This document shows positions 17,778 to 42,686 of a stretch of 64,000 bases of DNA, one piece after another. The stretch is taken from contig CAZAOT010000001.1 in the NCBI GenBank assembly GCA_964487045.1, positions 215,863-279,862 of the forward strand, given 5' to 3'. Within the stretch, counting starts at the first letter, position 1. Each line of letters begins with the position of its first letter. Both the position numbers and the translations under genes were made by a program. The notes beneath the pieces are model-generated. The model did not search any database. It saw nothing but the letters and a program-made list of their open reading frames with translations, and was not told where the DNA came from. This stretch comes from an uncultured Candidatus Saccharibacteria bacterium. GTDB lineage: Bacteria > Patescibacteriota > UBA1384 > DTJR01.

Positions 17778-17880
17778 CTTGACTCCTTCTTGGCGGCTTA
17801 CCAGTAGGCCATGCCCGAACGGGTTGGGGAAGCGTCAACTATTGGTCCTGAGAAAACGGACATATGTTTATTCGCTGATC

Positions 17881-17926: not shown

Positions 17927-18034
17927 ATGTCAAAGAACATTCAAAAGCACTCCTTGTAAAATCTTCACCAATACAATAACCTTATTTGTTAATATTTACA
18001 AAATTTCTCTCTTGATATATAATTGCTCCAGTTA

Positions 18035-24192: not shown

Positions 24193-25031
24193 TGGAAAGA
24201 CTTCCTTTTACAATTACAATGCGCAAAGACCTTGTTAAGAAGGTCGATTCTTTGGTTGATGGTACAAAAATTAGAAATCGATCGCATGCTTTAGAGTTTG
24301 TGGTCAATACATATTTCTCCCCAAAGATTTCAAAAGCACTTATCTTGGCTGGCGGAAAGGGTATAAAAATGCGCCCGCTAACTTACGAAATGCCCAAGGC
24401 AATGCTTCCAGTTAAGGGCAAGCCAATTTTAGAATATACAATCGAGCAACTTAAGAAGAACGAAATCCGCGAAATTATAATTGCTTGTGGGCCTCTTAGC
24501 GAAAAAATAAAAGACTATTTTGGCGACGGCTCAAGATTCTCAGTCAAAATTAGCTATATTGATGAGAAGGCAGACCTTGGAACTGGTGGCGCGCTTAAAA
24601 AGGCCCTACCAATCATGGGAAGCGAGCCTTTTGTGATGGTTTGGGGAGATGTTTTGGCTGAGCTTGATCTTGCTGACATGGTTGATTTTCATATGGACGA
24701 AAATCCAGTTATGACAGTCGCCCTGACCTCTGTTTCTGACCCTAGAGAATATGGTTCGGTTAGAATGCATCGCAATATTATGGTTGATTTCCATGAGAAG
24801 CCAAAGAAAGGTGCTGATGTATCTCACTTGGTCACAGCGGGAATTCATATCGTTGATCCAAAAATTTCTAAATATTTATCAAAAAAATCTTCTTTTATGC
24901 TTGAAGAAGAAGTTCTACCAATGCTGACTAAAGATAGGGAAGTAAGAGGTTATATTTTCGATGGTCAGTGGTTTGATGTAGGGTCTCTTGAGATCTATCA
25001 GCGCGCTATCAGATCTTGGGGCAAGAACTAA
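24192..25031 (+). CDS. sugar-phosphate nucleotidyltransferase with an N-terminal ribbon-helix-helix extension
   Basis: Canonical NTP-transferase N-terminus ALILAGGKGIKMRPLTYEMPKAMLPV is preceded by 46 aa with an RHH-like pattern (ITMRKDLVKKVDSL...RSHALEFVV). It couples to the upstream gene by a TAATG overlap. Confidence 0.7.
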   Translation: MERLPFTITMRKDLVKKVDSLVDGTKIRNRSHALEFVVNTYFSPKISKALILAGGKGIKMRPLTYEMPKAMLPVKGKPILEYTIEQLKKNEIREIIIACGPLSEKIKDYFGDGSRFSVKISYIDEKADLGTGGALKKALPIMGSEPFVMVWGDVLAELDLADMVDFHMDENPVMTVALTSVSDPREYGSVRMHRNIMVDFHEKPKKGADVSHLVTAGIHIVDPKISKYLSKKSSFMLEEEVLPMLTKDREVRGYIFDGQWFDVGSLEIYQRAIRSWGKN

Positions 25032-25100
25032 ATTTAAATTCTCTTGTTTGGTTTGCAATTTTTTCATGTATAATTATGGTAGACGCTAATCATGTGATAT

Positions 25101-25730
25101 ATGAAAAAAATTGGTTGGTCTAATAAAATGGCATATGCGGTCGGTCTTTTAGCTACCGACGGTCATCTTTCAATTGATAAACGACATATAGATCTAACTT
25201 CAAAGGATGTCGAACAGCTGAAAAATTTTATGCAGGCGATTGGGAGACAATATATCATAGCTAAAAAATCTTCTGGTTATACGGGTGAGCTTTGTAGCCG
25301 AATTCAATTTAGTGACGTATCGCTGTATCGGTGGTTGCTGAGTATCGGCTTCAAGCAGAAAAAGACTGATGAGATGAGCGATTTAAAGATCCCTCAAAAG
25401 TATTTCTTTGATTTTCTTAGAGGACATTTCGATGGTGACGGGTCTATATACTCATACTTTGATCCTCGCTGGAAAAGTAGTTTTATGTATTACATAACAT
25501 TTATAGCTAAGAACAGAGATCATATTGTTTGGTTACAAAAAATGATTGAAAAATTAAGTGGCGTAAAAGGAAGGATTGGATTGGGAAAGCGTGTATATCA
25601 AGTAAGATTCGCCAAGAAAGAGAGCAAGGTTCTTATCAATAAGATGTACAAAAGAACTGACGCCCTTTATTTAACTAGAAAATATGATAAAATCTTAAAG
25701 ATCCTTGAAATTGATGCGGATGTGCTGTAA
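25101..25730 (+). CDS. LAGLIDADG homing endonuclease (two-motif)
   Basis: Motifs LLATDGHL and FDGDGSIY. The last 15 nt and stop codon overlap the 5' end of tRNA-Leu(GAG). Confidence 0.8.
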   Translation: MKKIGWSNKMAYAVGLLATDGHLSIDKRHIDLTSKDVEQLKNFMQAIGRQYIIAKKSSGYTGELCSRIQFSDVSLYRWLLSIGFKQKKTDEMSDLKIPQKYFFDFLRGHFDGDGSIYSYFDPRWKSSFMYYITFIAKNRDHIVWLQKMIEKLSGVKGRIGLGKRVYQVRFAKKESKVLINKMYKRTDALYLTRKYDKILKILEIDADVL

Positions 25731-25802
25731 TTGGTAGCCAGGCGGCCTTGAGGAGGCCGTGTCCGTAAGGGCGTGGAGGTTCGAGTCCTCTCATCCGCAC
25801 CA
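25716..25802 (+). tRNA. tRNA-Leu (GAG), type II
   Basis: Acceptor GCGGATG/CATCCGC, anticodon loop TTGAGGA, long variable arm, T-loop TTCGAGT, CCA. Confidence 0.8.
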
Positions 25803-26070
25803 AAAATTAAATATCCCGAAAGGGTTATTTTTTTTAACCCACTTGACCCCATACCAGATAATATTATTGTTAAGGATTATTTGGCGGTTCCGCCCCGCCA
25901 AAGCCTTTCTGCAAAACGAAATTCTTTCGGTTACCTGCCTGCCGGCAGGCAGGTTGCAGAAGCGTCGGCTACGGGGTCTGCGAGCTGATTACAGCTCTTG
26001 ACAACAATATGATGATGTATGATAACATCATATTACATCACGAGCATTTCTTGACAGGAGGGTCGCAATC

Positions 26071-26286
26071 ATGACTGGTGGTACCGTTTCTCTCGATCTG
26101 GAAAATGTTCACGAAGGTGTCCGTCTCTGCAAGAGCGGATGCAACGTGAATGTCTTCGGGGCTAACGGAGTCTTACTCCAAATCCTCGAAGGCACCGACA
26201 TCGCTGAATGTGTGGAGCGCCTTCAGAAAGAGGGTGTTCCGCACACCATCTGCACCCCTGACCTGGTCATTCAAATCACCCGCTAG
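26071..26286 (+). CDS. GC-rich cassette E: 71-aa hypothetical protein
   Basis: A TTGACA promoter overlaps the 24-bp motif atgatgatgtatgataacatcata, which also occurs at the native SIS gene promoter. A terminator hairpin agggcccc...ggggccct follows. Confidence 0.45.
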   Translation: MTGGTVSLDLENVHEGVRLCKSGCNVNVFGANGVLLQILEGTDIAECVERLQKEGVPHTICTPDLVIQITR

Positions 26287-26450
26287 TGTCGTCTGCTAGC
26301 CAGCTATCTCGTGACATCAGGGCCCCCGTCAATCGACAGGGGCCCTACGACTAATTTGACAACTTGGTTTAATATGGTGTTATTATGGCAATATGTATTG
26401 AAAATTAATTCGTTTAAAATTTAATTTTTAAAATAAGAATTGAGGTAGAT

Positions 26451-28289
26451 ATGTGCGGAATTGTTGGTTATATTGGCACGAATAATGGTGTCGAAGCGAT
26501 TGTTGATGGACTCAAGAGGCTCGAGTATCGCGGCTATGACTCGTGGGGAATTGCGGCCAAAAAAGATGGAAAGATTTTAATACACAAACAAGTTGGCAAA
26601 ATTGGAGGATTTGATTTAAAAAAAGATTTACCTAAATTCGATGGACAGCTCTGTATTGGTCACACCCGCTGGGCGACTCATGGCGGCGTAACTCGTGAGA
26701 ACTCTCACCCTCATGTATCTTGCGACGGTAGGATTGTTGTAGTTCACAATGGCATTGTCGAAAACTATCAGGAGCTCAAGGCTGAGCTTACGAAAAAGGG
26801 TCATGTTTTCAAATCCCAGACTGACACTGAAGTCATTGCTCACTTAATTGAGCAAGAGCTATCCGCCTTCGCCAAGGCTTCGGCAGGATCGTCCGGGTCG
26901 TCTAAAGCCGACTCGGCGAAAAGATTAGTCGATGCTGTCAGAAGAGCTTTAAAAAAGATCGAAGGAAGTTATGCTCTTGGCGTTTTAGATCGTGAAACAG
27001 ATACTTTAATCGGAACTCGTCTGGCTAGTCCGCTTATTTTAGGAATCGGAAAAAATGAATTTTTTCTTGGCTCCGATGTACCAGCGTTTCTCAAATATAC
27101 TAATCAAGTGGTATTTCTTGACGAAGGCGAGATGGCTGTAATGAAGAAAGATGCTCTTGGCGCATCGACCTATGAGCTTCTAGAAGTTGCCTCTGGCAAA
27201 AAACTTAAGCCAAAAGTGGTCAAAATTGCCTGGTCTAGTGAAGAAGCAGAAAAGGGCGGGCACCCTCATTTTATGATCAAAGAAATGCTTGAGCAGCCAC
27301 AAGTTATCAGAAAAACTGCCGGCACCGAAAAAGAAGAACTCGAAAAAGCAGCAGCGCTAATTAACAAAGCAAAAAGGGTTTTTGTCGTTGCTTGTGGAAC
27401 GGCCCTACATGCTGGTCTATACGGATCGTATTTGCTCGCTAAGAGAAATAATATTATGGTTGAGCCAATCTCAGCAGGAGAGCTTTCATATTTTTCTCAT
27501 TTATTCAAAAAAGGCGATTTGGTCATAACCGTATCGCAGTCCGGAGAAACAGCCGATGTTTTGGAAGCGGTTCGCTCTGCTCACAAAGCTGGTGCAAAAG
27601 TTTTGGCTTTGGTAAATGTACTTGGCTCCTCGCTCATGCGCTTAGCCAATCGCTCCATTCTTACTAAAGCTGGCTCTGAAATTTGCGTGCTTTCAACCAA
27701 AGCTTATATCTCGCAACAAGCGATGTTTGCGATGCTATCAGGAACGCTTTCGGGCAAAACTGCTTCAGCAAAAAAAGAACTTGAACTAGTCGCTAAAGAC
27801 ATGGAGAAGATTCTTAGCAAAAAAAGCTTAGAAAAAATCAAACTTTCCAGCAAGAAACTTGCTAAAGTCCCTAATCTCTATGCTCTTGGCCGCTCGATCA
27901 ACTATGCAAACTCTCTTGAGAGCTGTCTAAAAATCAAAGAAGTTTCATATATCCATGCCGAGGGTTTTGCCGGCGGTGACCTCAAGCATGGACCAATTTC
28001 ACTTATCGAAAAAGGAGTGCCAGTTTTGATCTTTGTCTCTCCGGACTCGACCGAGAAAGAAATTATTTCAAACGCGATGGAGGTAAAGGCCAGAGGCGCT
28101 CACGTAATCGGCATCTCGCCAACAAATAACTCTGTGTTTGATGAGTATTTTCCAGTCGCAGATCTTGGTGATCTGACTCCAATTTCAGCAATCGTTTACG
28201 CTCAGCTCATGGCTTATTATATTGCCTTAGAGAAGAAACTCGATCCTGACAAGCCAAGAAATTTGGCTAAGTCGGTTACGGTCAAATAA
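26451..28289 (+). CDS. glmS: glutamine--fructose-6-phosphate aminotransferase
   Basis: MCGIVGYIG N-terminal Cys and two SIS domains. Ends with ...VTVK. Confidence 0.9.
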   Translation: MCGIVGYIGTNNGVEAIVDGLKRLEYRGYDSWGIAAKKDGKILIHKQVGKIGGFDLKKDLPKFDGQLCIGHTRWATHGGVTRENSHPHVSCDGRIVVVHNGIVENYQELKAELTKKGHVFKSQTDTEVIAHLIEQELSAFAKASAGSSGSSKADSAKRLVDAVRRALKKIEGSYALGVLDRETDTLIGTRLASPLILGIGKNEFFLGSDVPAFLKYTNQVVFLDEGEMAVMKKDALGASTYELLEVASGKKLKPKVVKIAWSSEEAEKGGHPHFMIKEMLEQPQVIRKTAGTEKEELEKAAALINKAKRVFVVACGTALHAGLYGSYLLAKRNNIMVEPISAGELSYFSHLFKKGDLVITVSQSGETADVLEAVRSAHKAGAKVLALVNVLGSSLMRLANRSILTKAGSEICVLSTKAYISQQAMFAMLSGTLSGKTASAKKELELVAKDMEKILSKKSLEKIKLSSKKLAKVPNLYALGRSINYANSLESCLKIKEVSYIHAEGFAGGDLKHGPISLIEKGVPVLIFVSPDSTEKEIISNAMEVKARGAHVIGISPTNNSVFDEYFPVADLGDLTPISAIVYAQLMAYYIALEKKLDPDKPRNLAKSVTVK

Positions 28290-28299
28290 TTAATTTTTT

Positions 28300-28632
28300 T
28301 GCGAGCAGTAGCTCGCGCTTATGTGAAAACCGGGGGGACACTCTTGATTGTGAAACATCCACTTTTTGAGTACCACCTCAAAAAGCCCTAGGTTTTCAAC
28401 GCTTTCCTCACCCTCGCAATGCCCTTGGTGAAGCTATCTTTGTTGAAACTTCCGGAATTTATTCAGTTTACGTTCAGACTTACGTCTTCATATTCAACTG
28501 ATATGCAGTTCCAACTTTCAACTTCAGAGAGCATCTATTAATTCATAGGCTCGAAGCTCGCTTTTTCGCCTATGAATTGGAGGGATTTATTAATGCCACA
28601 GAATTGACAAAACAGCACTTTTGTGCTATATT
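28300..28632 (+). repeat. copy 1 of the recurrent structured element, with a TTGACA-17-TATATT promoter at its 3' end
   Basis: Shares conserved blocks with the copies at 52555, 37131(-), 42381(-) and 22335(-). It carries two expanded hairpin inserts. Confidence 0.7.
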
Positions 28633-28736
28633 GTCAGGTTCGTAAATTGAAATTTACTTAGAGGTAGGTTCCTGGAGCTTTATCCAGAAATCCTGCTTCT
28701 AAGCAGGTATTCTCCAGCCGCTTAGTCGGCTGGGAG

Positions 28737-29261
28737 GTGATTGATTTGTCGAAGCAAGAACGGACAACCGGACTCGTTGTTGTAGCAGCGGTCGTAGGGA
28801 TCTGGATCCTTAGCCGCATCGTCGGCGATGGCTTCGGCGAGACGTTCTGCGAGATCTTGGCCGTGAGCGCCGGCGCCCTGGTCTGTACCATACTGGCATC
28901 TGCGCTGCTGACGAAGCCGGATGGGAAGATGCCGGAGGAGAGTGCTATCATCGGGCTCTTCATGATCTTCTTTGTCCTGCTGGCTATCCCGCACTTCAGT
29001 GTCTCGGCCAAGCTTGCGTCGAGCAAGTGGCAGATGAAGATCGCGGTGGCCCACGACTATGACAAAGCAGGGATCAAAGAGGCGCTCACCCAGCGTGACG
29101 AGACGCTCCGGCGCTCGAGTGCTTACATGATCGGTGACGGCTGGAAGTATGACCGTCACACCCACTACTTCAACCGGGGCTGGAACCTGTATCTCTGGGT
29201 TCCGTTCTCCGGATACCGGCGCAAGCCGGTCACGACCAACGGCCTGGGGACTAGTCCCTAG
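28737..29261 (+). CDS. GC-rich cassette F: hypothetical integral membrane protein (3-4 TM)
   Basis: GC-rich ORF with a structured ~100-nt leader and a GGGAGG SD. The start could be the GTG at 28737 or the TTG at 28746. Confidence 0.5.
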   Translation: MIDLSKQERTTGLVVVAAVVGIWILSRIVGDGFGETFCEILAVSAGALVCTILASALLTKPDGKMPEESAIIGLFMIFFVLLAIPHFSVSAKLASSKWQMKIAVAHDYDKAGIKEALTQRDETLRRSSAYMIGDGWKYDRHTHYFNRGWNLYLWVPFSGYRRKPVTTNGLGTSP

Positions 29262-29317
29262 GCCGTTTTTGATTGAAAAAAATCAAATTATAAGGTATAA
29301 TTTCGATGTTTGATGAT

Positions 29318-29394
29318 GGGCGACTAGCTCAGTTGGTTAGAGCGACTCGTTTACACCGAGTAGGTCAGGGGTTCGAATCCCTTGTCGCCCACCA
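29318..29394 (+). tRNA. tRNA-Val (TAC)
   Basis: Acceptor GGGCGAC/GTCGCCC, anticodon loop TTTACAC, T-loop TTCGAAT, CCA. Confidence 0.85.
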
Positions 29395-29426
29395 CAATAT
29401 TTTTAAACTAGTGATATAATTAAAAT

Positions 29427-30101
29427 ATGACATACCCCATTAGTTTAAAAAATAAAGCGTTTGAGTTTAGATTGAGAGGATTAAGTTACAACACGATTTC
29501 TACTCGTCTAAAGGTGCCCAAAAGTACCTTGTGCTCATGGCTCAAAGAAAATCTAGATTCAGCAAAAATAAAAGAACAGAACATTGAAAAAACGAGAAAA
29601 ATTTGGTCTACAAATATCTCATCATTTAATTCTGCTAGAGCGAAGCGTTACAAAACTGAAGTTGCATCTGAAATCAGAGCAAATTCAAAGACTTTGCCTA
29701 AACTCAATTCTGATAATCTTTTCTGGATCGGGATAGGACTTTTTATGGCAGAAGGTAGTAAAAAAGAGAAATGGTCGATTAAATTTACAAACTCTGATCC
29801 TTTGATAATTAGATTAATAATGAGATTTTTTAGAGAAATTTGCAACGTTCCCGAGGATAAATTTAGGCCGTTGGTTTTTATACATAATAATTGTGATGAA
29901 GCCGAATCATTGAAATATTGGTCAGGAATTGCTAAAGTTCCAGAAGAGCAGTTCTGGAAGTCACAGATCATACGATCAAAGAGTAGCTTGGGCCGGAGAC
30001 CGGTCGATAGGTTGCCTTATGGAACTTTGCGGATCGCTATTCCTGACACAAGATTGAATAGAAAAATTTATGGTTGGATGCTTGGCTTGAGCAAATATTA
30101 A
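29427..30101 (+). CDS. homing-endonuclease-like protein (single LAGLIDADG-like motif IGIGLFMAEGS)
   Basis: It lies 33 bp after tRNA-Val and 0 bp before tRNA-Phe. Confidence 0.55.
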   Translation: MTYPISLKNKAFEFRLRGLSYNTISTRLKVPKSTLCSWLKENLDSAKIKEQNIEKTRKIWSTNISSFNSARAKRYKTEVASEIRANSKTLPKLNSDNLFWIGIGLFMAEGSKKEKWSIKFTNSDPLIIRLIMRFFREICNVPEDKFRPLVFIHNNCDEAESLKYWSGIAKVPEEQFWKSQIIRSKSSLGRRPVDRLPYGTLRIAIPDTRLNRKIYGWMLGLSKY

Positions 30102-30176
30102 GCCGAGGTAGCTCAGTGGTAGAGCACCGGTCTGAAAAACCGGGTGTCGGCAGTCCGATCCTGCCCCTCGGCACCA
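30102..30176 (+). tRNA. tRNA-Phe (GAA)
   Basis: Acceptor GCCGAGG/CCTCGGC, anticodon loop CTGAAAA, CCA. The T-loop is atypical (TCCGATC). Confidence 0.75.
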
Positions 30177-30299
30177 AACTTCCCTCCAGTAGGAGTTACG
30201 CTTGGCAAGCCACCTATATCAACTAAGATCACCCTTTTCAGGAAGCAATTAAAAATGCGGTTTTCGGGCGGAACGAAAACCTAATCCATAATACAAAGT

Positions 30300-30707
30300 A
30301 TGATCAACTTCAAAGAATTTTTTACCTATAACCATCTCTTTACGCCGACTAACGAGCCGATGCACTACGTGCTTTATTTTTTTAGCCTTTTAGGGATTTG
30401 CCTTCTTATTTCGATTTATCTATATTTTATAGCCAAGAAAAAGCCAATTAAGTTCCAGAAAAATTTTTATCGAAGAGTCGCGGACTCACTATTTTATCTG
30501 CCAGTTCTGATGATTTTGTATCTTTTTATCAGGCGCGGAGGTCTGCAAATTGCCTCCCAGCGGATCATTTTCCTTAGTATGCTGGTTTTATGGTTGATTT
30601 GGCTCGGATTTTTGTTATACTATCGCTTAGCTGTTATTTCGAGATTATATCTTGAGTACAGCAAAAAAAAGAGAGAAGAAAGGTATCTAAAAAATGGTAA
30701 AAACTAA
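30300..30707 (+). CDS. small hypothetical integral membrane protein
   Basis: 135 aa with 3 hydrophobic helices. Confidence 0.45.
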   Translation: MINFKEFFTYNHLFTPTNEPMHYVLYFFSLLGICLLISIYLYFIAKKKPIKFQKNFYRRVADSLFYLPVLMILYLFIRRGGLQIASQRIIFLSMLVLWLIWLGFLLYYRLAVISRLYLEYSKKKREERYLKNGKN

Positions 30708-31773
30708 TACGGCGATTGAAGTTCAGTCATCTATGGACGAACTGGTTGCAGAGGTTGGGGACAAGCTAGTCCCGTTTGGTATTGGAGACTCGGTAGAATG
30801 TAAGGTTTTGCAGACAGCATCACACAGAATTTTGTGTGATGTTATGGGTTTAACTTGCGGTTTTGTGCCGGAGAAAGAATTTTCTTTTGACACTAAAGAC
30901 CTAAAGCCTGGAGATAAAGTTGTTGGTTCGGTTATGTCGATGGAAGGCAAGGACGGAATGATCGTTCTTTCACTTAGACGTGCCGACAGGGACAAGCTTT
31001 GGGACACTTTGCGAGAAAAAATGGAGAATCACTCCACTCTATCAGTAAGAGTTGCTTCTGCTAACAGAGGCGGTTTGATGGTAGATGCTGGAGGGTTAAC
31101 TGGATTCTTACCAGTTTCACAGCTGTCAGTAGATCACTATCCACGAGTTGATGGTGGAGATTCAGGTCAGATTCTCTACAAATTAAAAAAATTAGTCGGC
31201 GAGCCATTATCAGTTAAGATAATTGCCGTTGATAAAAATGAAGAGAAGCTAATCTTCTCCGAAAAAGAAGCAGTTTCAGATGCTCTCGGTGGAGTTGAAA
31301 GCTTGTTCGAAGTTGGCGAAGTTGTTGAGGGTATTATTTCAGGAATTGCTCCTTTTGGACTTTTCGTCAATCTTAAGTCGATCGAAGGTTTGATCCACAT
31401 TTCAGAAGTTTCATGGGATCATGTCTCAGACTTAAACAAAGAATTCAAAGTTAGCCAAAAAGTCAAAGCTAAGGTTGTGAAAATCGAAAACGGAAAGGTA
31501 TCACTTTCGATCAAGCGCTTAAGTGAAGATCCATGGCTAGGGCAGATGAAGAAGCTAAAAGTTGGCCAAAAACTCGAAGGTGAAGTTGGTAAGGTAACCG
31601 CTTATGGTGCATTTATCAAGCTACCTGATGGTTTAGAAGGTCTTGTTCACGCTGGCACACAAGGTGGCGATCCAGCTAAGGTGAAAGAGCTAAAAGCAGG
31701 CGAAAAAAAGGAATTCGAAGTCATCGAACTAAAGCCAGAATCAAGAAGGATTGGACTAAGGCTACTCGATTGA
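30694..31773 (+). CDS. rpsA: S1 RNA-binding-domain protein with four S1 repeats (ribosomal protein S1-like)
   Basis: Repeated S1-like blocks (GxV..I...G.FV.L..G..GL.H.S). Confidence 0.65.
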   Translation: MVKTNTAIEVQSSMDELVAEVGDKLVPFGIGDSVECKVLQTASHRILCDVMGLTCGFVPEKEFSFDTKDLKPGDKVVGSVMSMEGKDGMIVLSLRRADRDKLWDTLREKMENHSTLSVRVASANRGGLMVDAGGLTGFLPVSQLSVDHYPRVDGGDSGQILYKLKKLVGEPLSVKIIAVDKNEEKLIFSEKEAVSDALGGVESLFEVGEVVEGIISGIAPFGLFVNLKSIEGLIHISEVSWDHVSDLNKEFKVSQKVKAKVVKIENGKVSLSIKRLSEDPWLGQMKKLKVGQKLEGEVGKVTAYGAFIKLPDGLEGLVHAGTQGGDPAKVKELKAGEKKEFEVIELKPESRRIGLRLLD

Positions 31774-31908
31774 TCACAGCCCCGACCGGTATTGTACCGA
31801 TGGGGCTGGATCAACCCAGCTTCGATAAGTTCGTCTTAAAGATTACCAGCACTAGTATTCGGACATAACAAGCGGTAAAATTTTTGTAATTCAGCTAAGG
31901 AGGCTGGG

Positions 31909-31937
31909 TTGACAAAACGGCTTAGATAAGCTATAAT
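31909..31937 (+). promoter_or_regulatory. consensus sigma70 promoter (TTGACA-17-TATAAT) for cassette G, followed by a 15-bp perfect leader hairpin (31950-31987)
   Basis: Read directly from the sequence. Confidence 0.6.
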
Positions 31938-32034
31938 CTAGTATTTCATAAACGCACGGCTCTGGAGTAATTCAGAGCCGTGCGTTTATAAGAAACCACC
32001 TGCTCTTTGAGAGTTAGGTTAAGGAGGAACGGCC

Positions 32035-33717
32035 GTGGGCAAGCTGTGGCTGGCTCTTGTATTGCTTGTTGTTGTCTCGATGTCGTTTGCTGCTCAAGAC
32101 TTCGCAGTCGAGTGGCATGTCCACTCGAGCACCTTCTCGGACGGTACTCGCACCCCGCTACAACTCGTGCTCGATTCGCTTTGCCAAGTGGTGGTCTTCT
32201 CAGATCACCTCGACGGCATAGCAGCAAAGGGGGCGAAGCTCTACCTCGACACCATCAGAAGGTTGTCGGGTACAGCTGGGACGCTGGCTATTCCTGCGGT
32301 CGAAGTGACTTGTGGTAAACTTGAGAGCTCATATGATGTGATTGCTCTTGGCCTGAACGAAGAATCGCTTGACGAGCTGATTTCGCTTTATCAGAGAGGG
32401 GCTTTCAACTACTCCGAGCAAGGGCTACCTGCCCTTAAGGCGGTTGCAAACCGCTACAACTTGATCCTCATCGCTGCCCATCCGGACAGTAAGGACACCC
32501 TGCTTGGCAAGGGCATCCCTTTCCATCTCAACGAGAACGCCAAGTATGTCGACGGGTTTGAGATGTTCGATTCGAACCACATCGGTTTTGACGCGGACAA
32601 ATTTCCCGAAAACTGCCTGCCGTTCTACAGGCACTTTGACCGGCTAACGCTCACAGCTGGCAGCGACTTTCATTTCCTGATTCACGGCTCATTGCCAACC
32701 GAGTCTTGGCGTGAAGCGCCAATGACCCGGGTCATCCTCGACGACGACGCCTCGCTCACCGAAGAGTCGATCACTGACTCAATCCGGCGTGGCCGAACTT
32801 ACGTCTCGAGTCTGCGCAGCGCTCGGCTAGTCGAAGCGAGTGCGATGCCCGGCGGAGTGTGGAAGCTCGCCGAGCCGCTCTATATGGCTTGCCGAGGAGT
32901 AGAGGAAGGCGATTTTCTCTACGACAAGGTCAATGTGATTGCGGTCACCGGGAAGACGTGGCACAAGCGGAGCTTTCAACCTCGCTTTGATGGTGACAAG
33001 TTGGTGCTGAAGATCTCGGCTGATCAGTTTCCCCCTGGCATCAAGAGTCTGAACGTAGACTTCTGCGGGCGGATCCTCACCTCGACGATTCTCACCGCGC
33101 CGGCGCCAACTGCTCCGGTGCAGTCATCGCCTGTCGCTTCCGCACCCTCGCCGGTCCAGCCGACCCCTCAACCCGCACCTCAGCCTGCCGCCACATCCTC
33201 ACCAAACGCTAATGTCGATCCGAAGTACGGCATCAATCTTGCGGCGTATAAGTACCGCTTCCGCGGTACACAGGGGAATGTCTTTGGCAACACGAACGAG
33301 TATCTGGTCGTCTTTAATGACGACCTCAAGGGTAAAGTCTGGCATCAATTCGTGGCAGAATTTCCGCCGATTGTTCTCGACGTACAGCTCGAGATGAAAA
33401 GCGACGGCCACGCCCAATGTGTAGAGCTGTTCGACTTTGAACAGACCGCGAACGCCTGGCTTCCCAACCGTGCCCGGGATCCTCGCAAGACCGACCCATA
33501 CCTTGATGAACTGAGGTGTTGGAGTGAAGGTGACTGGGATCTGATCCCCAAAGGGAAGGCGCGTTTGAGAGTCAGCATTGATCCCAAGAGCCTCATGGCG
33601 TCGCACTGCGACACGTCGGGGCTTGCCTATACGATCAAGTCGATCCCTGCCTGGGCCTACGCGTTCAATCGGGGGTTTAACTACTACTATGACCAGGTTT
33701 TCCTAAAGCGTTTCTAG
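32035..33717 (+). CDS. GC-rich cassette G: secreted PHP-domain phosphoesterase with a Pro/Ala-rich linker and a C-terminal domain
   Basis: GTG start with AAGGAGG 7 nt upstream, then a signal peptide. PHP motifs HVHSSTFSDG, AAHP and SDFH are present. A strong terminator lies at 33745-33781. Confidence 0.6.
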   Translation: MGKLWLALVLLVVVSMSFAAQDFAVEWHVHSSTFSDGTRTPLQLVLDSLCQVVVFSDHLDGIAAKGAKLYLDTIRRLSGTAGTLAIPAVEVTCGKLESSYDVIALGLNEESLDELISLYQRGAFNYSEQGLPALKAVANRYNLILIAAHPDSKDTLLGKGIPFHLNENAKYVDGFEMFDSNHIGFDADKFPENCLPFYRHFDRLTLTAGSDFHFLIHGSLPTESWREAPMTRVILDDDASLTEESITDSIRRGRTYVSSLRSARLVEASAMPGGVWKLAEPLYMACRGVEEGDFLYDKVNVIAVTGKTWHKRSFQPRFDGDKLVLKISADQFPPGIKSLNVDFCGRILTSTILTAPAPTAPVQSSPVASAPSPVQPTPQPAPQPAATSSPNANVDPKYGINLAAYKYRFRGTQGNVFGNTNEYLVVFNDDLKGKVWHQFVAEFPPIVLDVQLEMKSDGHAQCVELFDFEQTANAWLPNRARDPRKTDPYLDELRCWSEGDWDLIPKGKARLRVSIDPKSLMASHCDTSGLAYTIKSIPAWAYAFNRGFNYYYDQVFLKRF

Positions 33718-33744
33718 CGCGTAGGGAGATCGAGGTTTGTTTTC

Positions 33745-33781
33745 ACGCCCAGCCGGGTTGTTTCCTGGCTGGGCGTTTTTC
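33745..33781 (+). terminator. intrinsic terminator (acgcccagccgg...ctggctgggcgt + TTTTT)
   Basis: Read directly from the sequence. Confidence 0.7.
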
Positions 33782-33972
33782 TTGAACAAATGTCTTTGTT
33801 CTGTTAAGATCGTGTAATAAATAAAGTAATATCCCGTCACTTTTCAACCTCTCGCAATATTCTCAATCTGAGAAATTTGCGGTCCCCTGTCAAACGGGTC
33901 AAGTAGGTTTCCAAAGTGAGGGACTTCCGGTCCAGCCCTTCGTGAAGAGCTGGACACGGAGCGGGAGTAAAC

Positions 33973-34449
33973 ATGCAGATTTCTAAAGCAAAAGATGGAC
34001 TCATTGAGATAAAAACCAAGTCAGCGATAATTCTGATCGATCATAAAATTATTATAAACGACGTCTCCTTGGAGGGCGCTGGGGAGTACGAAATTGGTGG
34101 GATTTCGATCGAAGGAATTGACGATAATATTTATATTTGCCAAGGCGAAGATATCAATTTTGCAATGGTTAATTTCATCGAAAAAATTTCCAAAGAATCG
34201 ATCGAAAAATTATCAAGCGTATCGCTACTTTTTGCAAGAGTTGATCAAAATGTTGATGCGGCAATTGAGCAGATCAGTCAAATTGAACCAAATCTTTGCG
34301 TTTATATTGGAGACGAACCTTCATATCAAAAAATAAAATCGGCCAGTATTGATGTCGATAAAACAGAAACTCTCAAAGTAAGTAAAAAAGATCTAGATGA
34401 GGCGGAGGGCTCATACTTTCTTGAAATAAACGATGCATCAAGCAAGTAA
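33973..34449 (+). CDS. hypothetical protein of 158 aa
   Basis: Backbone composition. It is preceded by a ~180-nt GC-richer structured leader. Confidence 0.45.
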   Translation: MQISKAKDGLIEIKTKSAIILIDHKIIINDVSLEGAGEYEIGGISIEGIDDNIYICQGEDINFAMVNFIEKISKESIEKLSSVSLLFARVDQNVDAAIEQISQIEPNLCVYIGDEPSYQKIKSASIDVDKTETLKVSKKDLDEAEGSYFLEINDASSK

Positions 34450-35377
34450 AGTCAAAGCATTTCTCGACAATAGTCAAAATATTTTAATTCTTCTGCATCA
34501 GTCACCTGACGGAGATACTATCTCTTCGTCGCTTGCGCTCGCTGCTTATTTCAGGCGAATTGGTAAGAAGGTTGATCTCGCTGTTAATGATGAAATTCCG
34601 AAGATTTTTGAGTTTCTCTTGAGCGAAGATGAGATCAAAAAAGACTTTCTTCTAGGTGACTATGATCTAGTCTTCGCCATAGACTGCGGCGATGCTCTAA
34701 GGACTGGTTTCCCGGCAAGGCTCGAGTCAATGTCTAAGGCAAAGCCACTTATAAATATCGACCATCACTTTAGAAATAATCTTCATAAAATAGCAACTCT
34801 AAATATTGTAGACGAAACGGCCTCCGCTACTGCTGAAATAATTTTTGAAATTCTGCTTGAGCTAGGAGCCAAGATAGACTCCAAAGTAGCAACTTATATT
34901 TTGGCCGGAATTTATTATGATACCGGGGGTTTTCAACATTCAAATGTAACTGGTCGTACACTCGGGATAGTTTCGGAATGTATCCGCTATGGTGGAAGAA
35001 TCAGCCTGGTGAGTCAAAATATTTCTTTAAATAAAAAAACTGCCGGTCTTAGACTTTGGGGCTTGGCTCTTAGAAGGATGATTGCCAAGAAAAACGGAAT
35101 TGTCTTTACCTACCTATCGAGCGAAGATCTTTTGGCAGTCGGCGCCGAAGTTGATGATGCCTCTGGCATTGTGAACCTCATAAATTCAGTACCTCAAAGT
35201 AGGGTCGCACTCTTGTTAATCGAGACTCCAGATGGTAAAATCAAAGCTAGCTTGCGAACCGAGGAAGACAGAGTGGATGTGTCTAAGATCGCTCGAATTT
35301 TTGGCGGAGGTGGTCATCGAAAAGCAGCCGGTTTCACCTTCGATGGCAAGCTGAAGAATTTGATCGCAAAAATATAA
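34433..35377 (+). CDS. nrnA: DHH-family phosphoesterase (NrnA-like oligoribonuclease/pAp phosphatase)
   Basis: DHH motifs: HQSPDGDT...NIDHH...GGGH. Confidence 0.75.
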   Translation: MHQASKVKAFLDNSQNILILLHQSPDGDTISSSLALAAYFRRIGKKVDLAVNDEIPKIFEFLLSEDEIKKDFLLGDYDLVFAIDCGDALRTGFPARLESMSKAKPLINIDHHFRNNLHKIATLNIVDETASATAEIIFEILLELGAKIDSKVATYILAGIYYDTGGFQHSNVTGRTLGIVSECIRYGGRISLVSQNISLNKKTAGLRLWGLALRRMIAKKNGIVFTYLSSEDLLAVGAEVDDASGIVNLINSVPQSRVALLLIETPDGKIKASLRTEEDRVDVSKIARIFGGGGHRKAAGFTFDGKLKNLIAKI

Positions 35378-35382
35378 CAAAT

Positions 35383-35470
35383 GGCGCGGTGTCGTAATCG
35401 GTAGCCGAGGCAGACTTAAAATCTGTTGGTCCTAAAGACCGTGTGGGTTCGAGTCCCACCCGCGCCACCA
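35383..35470 (+). tRNA. tRNA-Leu (TAA), type II
   Basis: Acceptor GGCGCGG/CCGCGCC, anticodon loop CTTAAAA, long variable arm, T-loop TTCGAGT, CCA. Confidence 0.8.
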
Positions 35471-35482
35471 TAGGGAGGATTT

Positions 35483-36175
35483 TTGCAAAAGTTGATCGAT
35501 ACAGAATTCTTCAAGAAATGGACGCATGATAGTGCTTATCTAATCGGCTATATATGTGCTGATGGTTGTGTACATAAGCGATCCAACAGGAATAATAGCT
35601 ATATTCTAACGATCACATCAAAAGATAAAGATCATTTGCACAAAATCAACACCATATTGTCATCTAATTATGCTATTTCAAAAAAAATCGGCGGTAGTGG
35701 ATCGATTTCCTACAATCTAAGTATTTCAAACACTGAGCTTTGCCTTGATCTAATAAATCTAGGGATAACTCCTCGTAAGACTTTCACCATAAGTAAAGTA
35801 GACGTTCCGGACTCTTTATTCTGCGATTTTTTGCGAGGTTATTTTGACGCAGATGGATCGATCTACATCTATAAGGTTAATAATACTTGGCAACTCAAGC
35901 TAGCTTTGGTTTCAGCTAGCAAGAACTTTTTGGAATTATTAGAGAGGGAAATATCTTTCAGACTTCAACTAGAGAGAAAAAATATTTATACGTTTCAGGG
36001 CAAGGGCAAGAACAATCCATTGCACTCGCTAGTTTTTTATATAAATGATGGGCAAAAATTCTTAAAATTTATTTACAAAAATAGTCCCCATATTTTTTTA
36101 GAAAGAAAGTACGAAGTCTTTAATAAATGGAAGACCATCAAAAGACGTAGCTATATATTAACAACTCAAAGTTGA
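35483..36175 (+). CDS. LAGLIDADG homing endonuclease (two-motif)
   Basis: Motifs YICADGCV and FDADGSIY. TTG start with AGGGAGG 7 nt upstream. It lies 12 bp downstream of tRNA-Leu(TAA). Confidence 0.75.
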   Translation: MQKLIDTEFFKKWTHDSAYLIGYICADGCVHKRSNRNNSYILTITSKDKDHLHKINTILSSNYAISKKIGGSGSISYNLSISNTELCLDLINLGITPRKTFTISKVDVPDSLFCDFLRGYFDADGSIYIYKVNNTWQLKLALVSASKNFLELLEREISFRLQLERKNIYTFQGKGKNNPLHSLVFYINDGQKFLKFIYKNSPHIFLERKYEVFNKWKTIKRRSYILTTQS

Positions 36176-36277
36176 TACTTTTCTTACTCCCTTGATCAAT
36201 TTTTATAAAAATGTTATAATTTCTCTCTGTTGGCGCAAATGAAATTGGCCATTTTGTGGTCAGCTAAATCTGCGACA

Positions 36278-36508
36278 ATGGAGGGTGTTTCTGTGGAACA
36301 GGACATCGTATTCGTGTTCGAGGATAAGAAGTACAAGGTCAGCCATGATGCTTACATCCTGGGTCTGGCCATCAGGCTTCCGGATGGTCGCATGATCCGC
36401 CCGAACTACTGGGAAACAGGTGATCCCCCTGTTCCCAAAGGACTGGCGGTTTGTGGGATAGACGAGCATGTTCTTGCTGAGCTCGTCGAAGACGGGAGCC
36501 AGTCATAG
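36278..36508 (+). CDS. GC-rich cassette H: ~76-aa hypothetical protein
   Basis: TTGATC-17-TATAAT promoter at 36191-36219. The start is ambiguous (ATG at 36278 or the GTG 15 nt later after GGAGGG). A terminator follows (ggccgga...tccggcc + T-run). Confidence 0.45.
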   Translation: MEGVSVEQDIVFVFEDKKYKVSHDAYILGLAIRLPDGRMIRPNYWETGDPPVPKGLAVCGIDEHVLAELVEDGSQS

Positions 36509-36578
36509 ATCGCATCTGCAGCATTGTCTCCTGGCCGGACCCAAGCATCACGCTTGGCTCCGGCCTCTTCTTTTTTAG

Positions 36579-37115
36579 CTAGGTCTTATTTCTAGTTAGT
36601 TCTAAAACCTCATACAAAATAACACCTGCAGAGGTAGCCACATTTATTGAATTTGCTCGCCCTAACATCGGTAGTTCTACTGACAAATCGCACTCTTCAA
36701 GTACTTCTTTTGACACTCCCTTGCCTTCATGTCCGAGTACGATCGCAATCGGTCTTTTGTATTTAGCTTTTTTGTAGTCGATTGACTGGTCGGTTTGCTC
36801 TAAGGCTACAACTCGCACTCCTTCATCTTTCAACTTTTTAACAATCATTTTTGCACTTTCAGCGTACTCCCAATCTACCCATTCAACCGCTCCCATTGAG
36901 ACCTTGAAAATTTTGTTTCGCGGAGGTGTAGCGGTGATGCCGCAAAGGTAAATCTTTTTTACTCGTACCGCATCGCAAGTTCTAAAAATTGCCCCGACAT
37001 TTTCCATCGATTTAATATTGTCGAGAATTACATAAATCTCGTTTTTAGGGGATTTAGAAACTTGTCTAAGTCCACCTTTAAGTTTTTTGTTTTCTGCTTG
37101 TGTTCTTTGCCGCAT
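36579..37115 (-). CDS. SpoU/TrmH-family RNA 2'-O-methyltransferase
   Basis: SpoU motifs ...NVGAIFRTCDAV...LVLGHEGKG... Confidence 0.75.
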   Translation of the reverse strand: MRQRTQAENKKLKGGLRQVSKSPKNEIYVILDNIKSMENVGAIFRTCDAVRVKKIYLCGITATPPRNKIFKVSMGAVEWVDWEYAESAKMIVKKLKDEGVRVVALEQTDQSIDYKKAKYKRPIAIVLGHEGKGVSKEVLEECDLSVELPMLGRANSINVATSAGVILYEVLELTRNKT

Positions 37116-40544: not shown

Positions 40545-40655
40545 CTCCTTAGGTTGGCTTACTAGCTACACTATAGCACTATTTAGCCCGTTAGAAATTG
40601 CCGACGCCTTGTATGCGCCGATATTGTGTATTTATATCTTAGTCGGCATCGATTT

Positions 40656-41483: not shown

Positions 41484-41583
41484 TTGAGCAAAATATTACT
41501 AAAAATAAGGTTCAATGTAAACAAAACGGGCCACCCAAGCTATGCAAGGGTGGCCCGTAGAGGGTCCTGGTAGGTGGCTCTAC

Positions 41584-42650: not shown

Positions 42651-42686
42651 TTTTTACTCTTTCATAAAAGTGCTAAAATAAAACAA

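Follow-up and report, generated by a model that had tools for sequence, protein, structure and literature searches.

Genes and tRNAs in the window

The window analysed here, a stretch of 64,000 nucleotides from an uncultured Candidatus Saccharibacteria bacterium, contains three open reading frames (ORF1, ORF2 and ORF3) in immediate contact with tRNA genes. The four tRNA genes listed below were located on the + strand by ARAGORN, and Rfam concurs.

25069-25086, + strand: element upstream of ORF1, consisting of TATAAT (25069-25074) and then GGTAGACGC (25078-25086)
25101-25730, + strand: ORF1, 209 aa, double-motif LAGLIDADG_3 protein, family F1
25716-25802, + strand: tRNA-Leu(GAG), with D-arm GGTAGCCAG
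29238-29301, + strand: terminator-like hairpin (29238-29267), then sigma-70-like promoter (29273-29301), both from consensus scans
29318-29394, + strand: tRNA-Val(TAC), conserved upstream neighbour of the clade of the window's ORF2
29412-29420, + strand: extended -10-like element TGATATAAT, of putative function, ending 6 nt 5' of the ORF2 ATG
29427-30101, + strand: ORF2, 224 aa, family F2
30102-30176, + strand: tRNA-Phe(GAA), intron-less, beginning one base past the ORF2 stop
35383-35470, + strand: tRNA-Leu(TAA), conserved upstream neighbour of the ORF3 family
35473-35479, + strand: Shine-Dalgarno-like GGGAGGA, 3 nt 5' of the ORF3 TTG start
35483-36175, + strand: ORF3, 230 aa, TTG start, double-motif LAGLIDADG_3 protein, family F3

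The original prediction of three free-standing genes abutting tRNA genes was correct in its coordinates and in the adjacency, and at ORF1 the contact is closer still: ORF1 overlaps tRNA-Leu-GAG by 15 nt, its TAA stop codon constituting nucleotides 13-15 of the tRNA. ORF2 starts 32 nt past tRNA-Val and its TAA stop abuts position +1 of tRNA-Phe, and ORF3 starts 12 nt past tRNA-Leu-TAA. The adjoining tRNAs are intact. Rfam matches nothing other than tRNAs, both at 24800-36600 and in the whole window; the three ORFs lie outside any intron or intein, and the possibility that they are intron-borne was rejected on these grounds.

A putative sigma-70-like promoter (TTGAAA-17-TATAAT, 11 of 12 matches in a consensus scan) is located just 5' of tRNA-Val. 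The element TGATATAAT has a counterpart, TGGTATAAT, at the same position in L166, the closest relative for which DNA is available, whose contig ends at the tRNA-Phe anticodon; possibly this element is ORF2's own promoter, which would give rise to a near-leaderless mRNA.

Adjacency between these ORFs and tRNAs is far beyond chance. A same-strand tRNA lies within 30 nt of the stop codon in 76 of 77 evaluable F1 copies and 51 of 94 F2 copies, versus 12 of 353 unrelated ORFs of at least 200 aa in the same tRNA-rich loci. The survey of related CPR genomes gives strong support to the lineage-wide association that had been proposed as the sign of a homing strategy: each of the three families is found with its own tRNA partner across CPR phyla, and none of the three ORFs is a degenerate pseudogene. 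The atypical T-loops to which the original prediction drew attention, TCCGATC in tRNA-Phe and TGCAAAT in tRNA-Cys, were read correctly, but they are unrelated to the ORFs; of 439 CPR tRNAs, about 11%, chiefly Phe and Cys, have T-loops lacking U55, with or without an adjoining ORF, and a link to the ORFs was rejected in favour of a trait typical of the lineage.

The LAGLIDADG_3 families of ORF1 and ORF3

The LAGLIDADG assignment made for all three ORFs holds for ORF1 and ORF3. ORF1 scores 28.1 bits against Pfam PF14528 (LAGLIDADG_3; gathering score 22.5) and matches phrog_4645 'endonuclease' at 3e-29; ORF3 scores 54.9 bits against PF14528 (cut-off 22.5) and 22.6 bits against PF00961, and matches phrog_4645 at 1.6e-39. 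The two proteins are 25% identical (E=1e-21). The invariant residues of the ORF1 family (D20/G21 and D111-G112-D113-G114) and of the ORF3 family (D27/G28 and D122-x-D124-G125) correspond in each case to two LAGLIDADG motifs with intact acidic residues.

ORF1 has 2225 relatives, and its family comprises more than 120 clusters at 50% identity or above, spread across phyla, with near-constant length and few pseudogenes; the copy in L160 has a premature stop. Of 77 evaluable copies, 75 end at or inside tRNA-Leu-GAG, with stop codons from -59 to +14 nt relative to tRNA position +1 and a single copy at +46. In a between-lineage comparison, 76 tRNA-Leu-GAG genes possess an F1 ORF and 18 are empty, and none of the 18 tRNA-Leu-GAG genes in F2-centred genome loci carries one. 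Five close relatives of ORF3 lie just 3' of tRNA-Leu-TAA and one distant relative reads into tRNA-Cys; the order tRNA-Leu-TAA, then F3 ORF, is also found in L161-L164 and L011.

About half of the F1 copies are preceded by a relic of the 5' half of tRNA-Leu-GAG (positions ~18-36). The strict relic motif GG[TC]A[TG]AC[GA]C-N4-10-TTGAG is present in 35 of 69 distinct upstream windows, versus 3 matches in 1.6 Mb of background, and the 9-mer GGTAGACGC upstream of ORF1 is a degenerate copy of the D-arm relic in which TTGAG is replaced by TGTGA. The F1 relic doubles as a predicted promoter. Its origin by local duplication of the neighbouring tRNA was rejected because the acceptor strands differ; a relic of the 3' half downstream of the intact tRNA-Leu-GAG is absent (1 of 41), and the few F3 loci yielded no significant tRNA-fragment relics. 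The D-arm of the window's own tRNA-Leu-GAG is of a variant type common beside F1 ORFs, unlike the relic type, which in ORF-less tRNA-Leu-GAG of that type reads GGTATACGC...CTTGAGG. The relic-type D-arm 9-mer is found in 12 of 17 empty versus 9 of 68 occupied alleles (p=7e-6, with no phylogenetic correction and with locus sets sampled differently).

ORF2 and the group I intron of tRNA-Phe

ORF2 is unrelated to ORF1 and ORF3 by sequence comparison, and for this protein the LAGLIDADG assignment failed in profile comparisons and gained no support from fold comparisons. The protein consists of an N-terminal three-helix HTH (residues ~5-39) of homeodomain-like/transposase type, resembling the HTHs of IS630/Tc1-type transposases, a long helix over residues 43-87, and a strongly conserved alpha/beta domain at the C-terminus (95-222); the invariant residues are E109, G110, K112, N122, S123, D124, R191 and P197-Y198-G199-T200. 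The family comprises 1933 clusters at 50% identity, and among relatives the domain is combined only with the HTH or with unrelated N-termini. ORF2 is under strong purifying selection (dN/dS 0.08 versus L166).

No LAGLIDADG profile matched ORF2, 50 family members or 9 isolated C-terminal domains at E<=10; a PDB profile search with ORF2 returned HTH matches only; and hhalign of ORF2 with the LAGLIDADG_3 family gave 3% probability. Foldseek searches of PDB and BFVD with two confident AF2 models (pLDDT 88 and 85.5) found no LAGLIDADG match, the best being weak OmpA-like domains (E 3.6e-3 and 0.17). The C-terminal domain has no relative in Pfam, PDB or by fold; lacking any match to a known nuclease fold or family, it owes the endonuclease label entirely to context. 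The sole hint of LAGLIDADG kinship is a motif register (AEG with (T/A)DG, FTNSDP with LTSKD) that recurs in two insignificant hhalign alignments, a comparison of low power in which a control with the ORF1 halves fails too (P=0.06).

The genome scan had alignment A2 as its query, alignment A1 being too diverse. Within 150 nt of a tRNA lie 89 of 96 F2 copies, and 51 copies adjoin tRNA-Phe. F2 subclades track the tRNA slot: the ORF2 homologue has tRNA-Val-TAC as its upstream neighbour also in L166-L170, L001, L002 and L005, and other subclades are situated at intron-less Ile-TAT, Val-GAC, Arg-TCT, Met, Pro and Gly tRNAs. The slots are variably filled. The spacer between tRNA-Val-TAC and tRNA-Phe measures 12-80 nt in L011, L014, L018, L024 and L076 and is filled by an ORF in the window and in L060, and the spacer between tRNA-Phe and tRNA-Gly-GCC is occupied in eight loci and measures 46 nt in L060. 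Truncated copies are still found at their tRNA (L085, L063, L018), and several genomes encode multiple divergent copies, each at a different tRNA (L010, L014, L060, L062). In L168/L169 a neighbouring tRNA spacer contains a small GIY-YIG ORF. In a relative at 78-82% identity, the only one whose gene table is readable, ORF1 and ORF2 occupy the slots that they have in the window, and thus no very recent gain or loss is documented.

Directly 3' of F2 ORFs, Rfam detects a group I intron (RF00028), which reaches or exceeds the gathering score in L001, L002, L030 and L170 and scores 46 bits in L023. Of 39 intron-containing tRNA-Phe genes, 37 adjoin an F2 ORF; the intron is present in 37 of 51 F2-adjacent tRNA-Phe genes versus 2 of 18 independently sampled loci (p=1e-5, with no phylogenetic correction and with differently sampled sets), the other 14 F2 copies beside tRNA-Phe adjoining an intron-less allele. 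In the syntenic relatives L167, L168/L169 and L170, a group I intron of 205-226 nt interrupts the orthologous tRNA-Phe beside the homologue of ORF2. The claim that homing genes and tRNAs are associated without intron interruption therefore stands for the window and fails in its syntenic relatives; likewise, the collaborative-homing layout, consisting of an ORF and an ORF-less intron at the adjacent gene, is found in relatives and is absent from the window. These patterns suggest that the F2 ORF is tied to the site in the tRNA-Phe anticodon loop at which the intron is inserted.

The window's tRNA-Phe, besides having no intron, has an anticodon stem (CCGGT/ACCGG, with U31-A39) unlike that of intron-bearing alleles: U31 never occurs in the intron-bearing alleles and occurs in 20 of 31 intron-less alleles, the window's included (no phylogenetic correction). 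L060, in contrast, has an intron-less tRNA-Phe allele with exon sequence of the intron-bearing type. Intact ORF2-type genes beside intron-less tRNA-Phe, both in the window and among the 14 of 51, together with the L060 exon, indicate that immunity is not always conferred by the intron.

Probable homing at tRNA genes and its alternatives

The same tRNA genes occur, between lineages, both with and without an ORF. On balance, ORF1, ORF2 and ORF3 are probably free-standing genes of homing-endonuclease type, belonging to CPR-wide families for each of which one tRNA gene is the anchor and the probable cleavage target; they would be single-ORF selfish elements, lying outside introns and inteins, with putative nuclease activity. 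The encoded proteins would cut the ORF-less allele of their own tRNA gene in the region from D-arm to anticodon, and recombinational repair of the cut gene would copy the ORF in. The original prediction placed the target in tRNA-flanking sequence; the F1 relic and the F2 intron site point instead to the interior of the tRNA gene. The ORFs may ride on tRNA transcription units, with RNase P cleavage at tRNA position +1 setting the 3' end of the mRNA; at ORF1 this cleavage would strip the stop codon, which may hold expression low.

The F1 and F2 families may have solved the problem of inserting at a tRNA gene differently. The ORF1 element would have been inserted in the anticodon loop along with a replacement for the 5' part of the tRNA, restoring tRNA-Leu-GAG without splicing and leaving the displaced 5' half as the relic; this model does not explain how the restored gene escapes cleavage. 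The ORF2 family would practise collaborative homing, its enzyme cutting intron-less tRNA-Phe at the intron insertion site, with the intron shielding the carrier and both ORF and intron spreading jointly. The window's lineage has no such intron, and its tRNA-Phe allele presumably resists cutting.

The closest precedent for tRNA-targeted homing without interruption is SegB of phage T4, a free-standing GIY-YIG homing endonuclease encoded, like ORF2, between tRNA genes; it recognizes a 27-bp site that includes the T-psi-C stem-loop, a conserved tRNA motif, and drives the inheritance of itself and of neighbouring tRNA genes in the T4 tRNA gene cluster (PMC2330249; PMC2988022). SegB is a single case in a phage, whereas the CPR ORFs are cellular, encode LAGLIDADG_3 proteins or the novel ORF2 domain, and fall into families with hundreds to thousands of members, one tRNA isoacceptor per family; nor is SegB known to have a tRNA-half relic, as in F1, or an intron partner, as in the F2 family. 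An analogous collaborative system is known from cyanophage S-PM2, in which F-CphI and an ORF-less psbA group I intron spread jointly, the intron at the enzyme's target preventing self-cleavage, and a comparable system exists in phage (PMC6083498; PMC3984707). An F2 ORF beside an intron-containing tRNA-Phe has the same layout, with cleavage at the insertion site putative. The F2 system differs from it in its host gene, a tRNA, in residing in a cellular bacterium and in its different, uncharacterized enzyme family, and the window itself has the ORF without the intron; phage introns known at the time of one of these reports were all in protein-coding genes (PMC3984707).

Within the CPR, rRNA insertions carry LAGLIDADG proteins including LAGLIDADG_3, and homing into conserved RNA genes has been proposed (PMC11270868; PMC11809585); the survey in question found LAGLIDADG_3 in 16S insertions only and does not mention tRNA. 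Those ORFs share phylum and superfamily with ORF1 and ORF3 yet lie inside rRNA insertions or introns, whereas ORF1 and ORF3 stand alone beside tRNA genes and are not enclosed by a ribozyme. In literature searches of incomplete coverage, neither tRNA-adjacent endonuclease genes nor group I introns in tRNAs turned up for the CPR. In the hybrid mitochondrial atp6 gene of Allomyces, an endonuclease ORF arrived with a replacement gene terminus. By analogy with that case and with integrative elements that carry a tRNA gene segment, the F1 layout of 5'-half relic, ORF and intact tRNA resembles, in architecture only, what an element carrying a replacement gene segment would leave behind. F1 differs from integrative elements in having no integrase and in the extent of the duplication, which covers the 5' half as far as the anticodon loop; unlike the remnants of gene-rebuilding elements, its relic is conserved across lineages and apparently reused as a promoter.

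We consider it unlikely that the ORFs instead encode domesticated, vertically inherited DNA-binding proteins serving the host at tRNA loci, for instance as regulators of tRNA operon transcription or tRNA gene maintenance factors, kept beside tRNA genes since early CPR evolution and lost in many lineages. The model for such a fate would be WhiA, a LAGLIDADG and HTH protein turned regulator. F1 is unusually well conserved for a selfish gene, with constant length across phyla, and would fit a domesticated function too; yet F1 and F3 keep the two acidic residues of the LAGLIDADG motifs without exception, and WhiA has lost them. The purifying selection on ORF2 even without an intron, the HTH domain of F2 and slot-specific F2 subclades that could represent ancient paralogy are likewise compatible with a host role, as is an F1 relic or promoter acting as an operator, but the existence of truncated copies and the variation in copy number between genomes are not expected of it. 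Although the relative at 78-82% identity has the same slots filled, the wider distribution is patchy, as the 18 F1-less tRNA-Leu-GAG genes illustrate, and the GIY-YIG ORF in L168/L169 brings to the same kind of site a further, unrelated nuclease family, which suggests colonization rather than a single host function.

A second alternative, that ORF2-family proteins are not DNA endonucleases but maturase-like cofactors for the splicing or processing of the tRNA-Phe group I intron or of tRNA precursors, is improbable. The strong co-occurrence of F2 with the intron would be accounted for, but ORF2 is intact and under purifying selection beside an intron-less tRNA-Phe in the window's lineage, the 14 copies beside intron-less tRNA-Phe alleles would have no intron to serve, and other subclades adjoin the intron-less tRNAs for Ile, Val, Arg, Met, Pro and Gly listed above. 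ORF2 and the tRNAs are likely to be transcribed together and no nuclease fold is detectable in ORF2, both consistent with an RNA-directed role; the HTH, however, is of a type typical of DNA binding, and group I introns of ~210-285 nt with a full Rfam core, such as the one in tRNA-Phe, normally self-splice. Very improbable, finally, and rejected, is that the ORFs belong, as cargo or as enzymes, to integrative elements or transposons, which like integrases and some IS elements would target tRNA genes as classic integration sites: the transposase-like HTH of F2 and the resemblance of the F1 relic, a partial tRNA duplicate, to att-site duplications are outweighed by the failure to find an integrase or transposase catalytic domain, by a unit consisting of a single ORF, by flanks of 32 nt and 0 nt that leave no room for terminal repeats around an ORF2 filling the tRNA-tRNA spacer, and by within-genome copies too divergent to be recent transposition products.

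The usual view is that homing endonucleases require an intron or intein to live inside essential, conserved genes. In hundreds to thousands of CPR genomes, two further solutions seem to be in use at tRNA genes: a position right on the boundary of the tRNA, where the tRNA is rebuilt and the relic recycled, and a partnership with an ORF-less intron. That the ORF2 family is an unrecognized homing-endonuclease family and, jointly, the ORF1 family a self-healing LAGLIDADG insertion is a tentative proposal, perhaps correct. If so, F2, with its HTH and a fold that has no known relative, would give the first example of collaborative homing at a tRNA gene and beyond phages; F1 would insert in the tRNA-Leu-GAG anticodon loop bringing a replacement 5' part, with no intron or intein required, and the element would reuse the displaced tRNA half as its promoter or operator.

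A group I intron that is widespread in CPR tRNA-Phe, and apparently undescribed, also comes to light; the split gene escapes standard tRNA finders, so that genomes carrying it would seem to lack tRNA-Phe. Homing at tRNA genes would account for a large block of the genes annotated as 'hypothetical' or 'HTH-domain' in Patescibacteria, and would supply many natural long-target nucleases with guessable targets for use in meganuclease engineering. It would further imply regular exchange of DNA among these ultra-small, host-dependent bacteria.

The three tRNA-adjoining genes and their products

ORF calls, ARAGORN and Rfam bear out the three genes of the original prediction (ORF1, ORF2, the focal gene, and ORF3), each adjoining a tRNA gene. 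ARAGORN and Rfam concur on seven tRNAs in the window, of which four belong to the features around these genes.

Features around the three tRNA-adjoining genes
25078-25086, GGTAGACGC, degenerate copy of a relic of the tRNA-Leu-GAG 5' half (discussed below)
25101-25730, ORF1, overlapping tRNA-Leu-GAG by 15 nt
25716-25802, + strand, tRNA-Leu-GAG (ARAGORN, Rfam)
29238-29267, terminator-like hairpin (consensus scan only)
29273-29301, promoter-like site, 11/12 match (consensus scan only)
29318-29394, + strand, tRNA-Val-TAC (ARAGORN, Rfam)
29412-29420, extended -10-like TGATATAAT, kept in the closest relative
29427-30101, ORF2, starting 32 nt past tRNA-Val
30102-30176, + strand, tRNA-Phe-GAA (ARAGORN, Rfam)
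35383-35470, + strand, tRNA-Leu-TAA (ARAGORN, Rfam)
35483-36175, ORF3, TTG start, 12 nt past tRNA-Leu-TAA

The TAA stop of ORF1 comprises nucleotides 13-15 of tRNA-Leu-GAG; the base directly after the ORF2 TAA is tRNA-Phe +1; and ORF3 has a GGGAGGA Shine-Dalgarno sequence. Consensus scans alone give the surroundings of ORF2 a transcription-unit-like order: hairpin, promoter-like site, tRNA-Val, ORF2, tRNA-Phe. GC-rich islands (16100-18000, 28700-29300, 32000-33720, 36230-36510 and also 40000-43000; 50-55% GC against a background of ~41%) are found next to tRNA genes or next to the three ORFs: the interval from tRNA-Cys to tRNA-Gly, the stretch immediately ahead of tRNA-Val and the stretch immediately behind ORF3 each contain one. 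The islands are possibly foreign DNA, and their ORFs (174 aa; 560 aa, with a 546-aa counterpart in a relative; 92 aa) belong to no Pfam family.

All three products had been predicted to be LAGLIDADG proteins, which is borne out for ORF1 and ORF3 but finds no support for ORF2. By sequence, ORF1 and ORF3 qualify as true double-motif LAGLIDADG_3 proteins: each exceeds the Pfam gathering score and matches phrog_4645 ('endonuclease'), their mutual identity is 25% (E=1e-21), and the acidic residues of both catalytic motifs are invariant within the ORF1 family and within the ORF3 family. ORF2 has no sequence kinship to either; it comprises an N-terminal homeodomain-like/transposase-type HTH, a long helix and a strongly conserved C-terminal alpha/beta domain with invariant E109, G110, K112, N122-S123-D124, R191 and P197-Y198-G199-T200. 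Pfam LAGLIDADG found no match among 50 ORF2-family members and isolated C-terminal domains, a PDB profile search with ORF2 returned HTH matches only, and an hhalign comparison with the ORF1/ORF3 family put the probability at 3%. Two confident AlphaFold models (pLDDT 88.4 and 85.5) had no significant Foldseek match in PDB or BFVD, and no LAGLIDADG enzyme was among the top 50 matches listed per search. The sole hint of kinship is a motif register that recurs in insignificant alignments (G.aLYWAEG on GLLATDG/GfIADG; FTNSDP on LTSKD), in a test of little power because its control, ORF1 half against ORF1 half, likewise failed (P=0.06). Since no test supported a LAGLIDADG assignment, we class ORF2 as an HTH protein carrying a domain of no recognised fold class. 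Its family comprises 1933 clusters at 50% identity, and comparison with a 79% identical relative that has the same tRNA-Phe 5' sequence (L166) gives a dN/dS of ~0.08, with dS near saturation, indicating at the level of coding sequence that ORF2 is under selection and not decaying.

Linkage to tRNA genes and optional occupancy

The association with tRNA genes, described as consistent in the original prediction, proved tighter and more specific than claimed when surveyed across Candidate Phyla Radiation-type bacteria (CPR; Patescibacteriota). The ORF1 family (2225 relatives; over 120 clusters at ≥50% identity, spread over many CPR candidate phyla) was followed in 80 metagenomic loci, and each of the 77 evaluable copies ends at a tRNA on its own strand: Leu-GAG in 75, Leu-AAG in one and, at a distant paralogue, tRNA-Phe in one. 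The stop codon lies 0-14 nt before tRNA +1 in 42 copies and inside the tRNA in 35 of the 78 copies with a tRNA at that point (window and L081-L160), either in the D-loop or, frequently, in the anticodon loop, where U33-G34-A35 supplies the 'TGA'. Close relatives of ORF3 (L161-L164, 47-60% identity), and L011 (45%) as well, are without exception located immediately 3' of tRNA-Leu-TAA; a 35%-identity relative runs into tRNA-Cys, and tRNA-Leu-TAA comes next. The ORF2 family (represented by at least 545 copies among species-representative genomes) has a same-strand tRNA ≤30 nt from the stop in 51 of 94 copies, compared with only 12 of 353 unrelated ORFs of ≥200 aa drawn from the same tRNA-rich loci, and a tRNA ≤150 nt away in 89 of 96 copies, intron-containing tRNAs counted. 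Subclades of its protein tree follow the tRNA slot (Ile-TAT, Val-GAC, Arg-TCT, Met-CAT, Pro-TGG, Phe-to-Gly-GCC, after Val-TAC, after Phe). One copy stands in an apparent rRNA operon (L030, 959-4176: 16S rRNA, tRNA-Ile-GAT, tRNA-Val-GAC, ORF2-family gene, tRNA-Phe with group I intron, tRNA-Pro-TGG), and L028 likewise opens with a 16S 3' end.

Occupancy is optional. In the loci compared, 76 tRNA-Leu-GAG genes are accompanied by the ORF and 18 are not; the 18 from genome loci centred on ORF2 are all empty. Spacers between Val-TAC and Phe, and between Phe and Gly-GCC, either measure 12-80 nt or contain an ORF of ~680 nt. In four loci (L010, L014, L060, L062), two divergent members of the ORF2 family occur, each beside a different tRNA. 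Shortened, low-scoring copies remain attached to their tRNA (L085, 92 aa; L063, 115 aa; L018), and one copy (L160) has a premature stop. An 81-aa GIY-YIG-domain ORF lies beside an ORF2-family gene in the Leu-GAG|Val-TAC spacer (L168, 1036-1281; L169, 86-331) and is, from its sequence, a third predicted nuclease family in CPR tRNA spacers. Unrelated nuclease families in like sites, patchy occupancy and occasional decay together give these genes the look of free-standing homing endonucleases.

The tRNA-Phe intron, the tRNA-half relic and the T-loops

The follow-up exposed two features beyond the first reading, an intron partner in tRNA-Phe and a tRNA-half relic. ORF2-family copies apparently without a downstream tRNA have tRNA-like D-arms just past the stop, and Rfam places RF00028 group I introns directly after the gene in four loci (L030, 87.9 bits; L002, 74.5; L001, 63.1; L023, 46.2, which falls below the gathering score of 50). 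In a survey by intron-aware ARAGORN and four conserved intron-core motifs, 39 tRNA-Phe genes proved to be interrupted in the anticodon loop by an intron of 205-285 nt that contains no ORF. An ORF2-family gene lies no more than 150 nt from 37 of them, which follow directly on its stop or precede its start by 50-90 nt; such split genes explain the 350-600 nt 'gaps' after tRNA-Val-TAC. Loci with a split tRNA-Phe include L001, L002, L005, L023, L030, L167-L170 and about 30 more. The intron is present in 37 of 51 ORF2-adjacent tRNA-Phe genes versus 2 of 18 in independently sampled ORF1-centred loci (Fisher p=1e-5, phylogenetically uncorrected). Because standard ARAGORN runs overlook split tRNA-Phe genes, genomes carrying them would appear to be without tRNA-Phe. 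Two of the split genes were called as tRNA-Phe-AAA and one as tRNA-Asp-GTC (L035), which may be mis-parsed boundaries.

An association without introns, as originally predicted, describes the window, whose tRNA-Phe is intron-less, but not its relatives. The syntenic loci L167, L168/L169 and L170, at about 50% protein identity, share the window's order (tRNA-Val-TAC, ORF2 homologue, tRNA-Phe, ~140-aa membrane protein, S1). Every tRNA-Phe in them is intron-bearing, its start falling between -10 and +5 nt relative to the stop codon, and the L170 intron exceeds the Rfam gathering score. The window allele has a divergent anticodon stem (CCGGT/ACCGG, U31-A39); U31 occurs in 0 of 39 intron-bearing alleles versus 20 of 31 intron-less ones. 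The contig of L166, the closest relative with DNA, stops exactly at the tRNA-Phe anticodon (1498-1532), either by coincidence or by an assembly break from intron presence/absence polymorphism in the population. In L166 (568-778) and L170 (483-664), a second tRNA-like gene is split into a 5' and a 3' half with an intact tRNA-Val-TAC in the middle; the flanks form the inverted repeat GAAATTCATTTTCT / AGAAAATGAATTTT in L170. ARAGORN intron mode labels these arrangements 'tRNA-Ala/Gly with intron'. Insertion of one tRNA into another could account for them, as could allele replacement that left a split relic.

Upstream of the ORF1 family, the motif GG[TC]A[TG]AC[GA]C-N4-10-TTGAG occurs in 35 of 69 distinct regions, and its background, three matches in 1.6 Mb, also lies upstream of ORF1-family genes. 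This relic corresponds to tRNA-Leu-GAG positions ~18-36, D-loop to anticodon, and reaches the acceptor strand in L134, L123 and L106. TATAAT usually follows; with TTGG(T/C)A as -35, 17-18 nt upstream, it makes a sigma-70-like promoter. The relic and the intact tRNA downstream have different acceptor strands, for which reason a simple local duplication was rejected. A matching 3'-half relic follows the tRNA in only 1 of 41 cases. The relic-type D-arm 9-mer is found in 12 of 17 unoccupied versus 9 of 68 ORF-adjoining tRNA-Leu-GAG alleles (p=7e-6, uncorrected); the intact window tRNA carries the variant GGTAGCCAG.

The atypical T-loops noted in the window, tRNA-Phe C55 (30102-30176) and tRNA-Cys G55 (15999-16072), are real, and their supposed link to the ORFs is not: about 11% of the 439 CPR-locus tRNAs (window and L001-L165) have non-U55 loops (TC or TG at 54-55), which are concentrated in Phe and Cys with or without an adjacent ORF. 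About half of intron-less tRNA-Phe copies are non-U55 (e.g. TGCAAGT, TCCGATT). For CPR tRNA-Phe and tRNA-Cys this suggests that tertiary pairing between T-loop and D-loop is relaxed or altered, or that psi55 modification differs.

Proposed homing into tRNA genes

We lean, at somewhat better than even chances, towards the three ORFs being selfish free-standing homing-endonuclease-type genes. The original homing reading would be right in direction and wrong in detail, with targets inside each gene's own tRNA gene, from D-arm to anticodon region, rather than in its flank. The ORF2 family and the tRNA-Phe intron would practise collaborative homing, as F-CphI does with the psbA intron, a process reported for phage protein-coding genes (PMC6083498; PMC3984707). 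The window would stand for a lineage that has ORF2 without the intron, its tRNA-Phe allele presumably refractory. The ORF1 element would have entered the anticodon loop carrying a replacement tRNA 5' part, and the displaced half would have stayed upstream, co-opted as promoter and perhaps as operator, for which I-TevI autorepression is a possible analogy; this model gives no account of how the rebuilt tRNA-Leu-GAG escapes re-cleavage. Expression of the ORFs would ride on tRNA transcription units, with RNase P setting mRNA 3' ends; for in-tRNA stops of the ORF1 family, cleavage of the co-transcript would strip the stop codon and could yield a non-stop mRNA, a brake on expression.

Several points weigh against selfishness: the endonuclease activity of all three proteins is putative, ORF2 has no recognisable nuclease fold in Foldseek searches of PDB and BFVD with both models, ORF1 conservation is high for a selfish gene, and intact ORF2-type genes also stand beside intron-less tRNA-Phe, including an L060 allele with intron-type exons. 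The main rival, that these are domesticated tRNA-linked DNA-binding proteins, runs against the patchy occupancy and decay, and we regard it as rather unlikely.

The closest precedent for the homing-endonuclease-type reading, as a free-standing nuclease gene among tRNA genes, is T4 SegB, described as a GIY-YIG endonuclease encoded between tRNA genes, whose 27-bp site includes the tRNA T-arm motif (PMC2330249; PMC2988022). CPR LAGLIDADG enzymes have been reported from rRNA insertions, and a comprehensive survey of these records LAGLIDADG_3 in 16S insertions only and leaves tRNA unmentioned (PMC11270868); a literature search of incomplete coverage found neither endonuclease genes beside tRNAs nor group I introns in tRNAs described for CPR. 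A new enzyme family is possibly among these genes. The present families are cellular, tRNA-anchored and family-scale, with two unusual solutions, a relic with a rebuilt tRNA in the ORF1 family and an intron partner in the ORF2 family.
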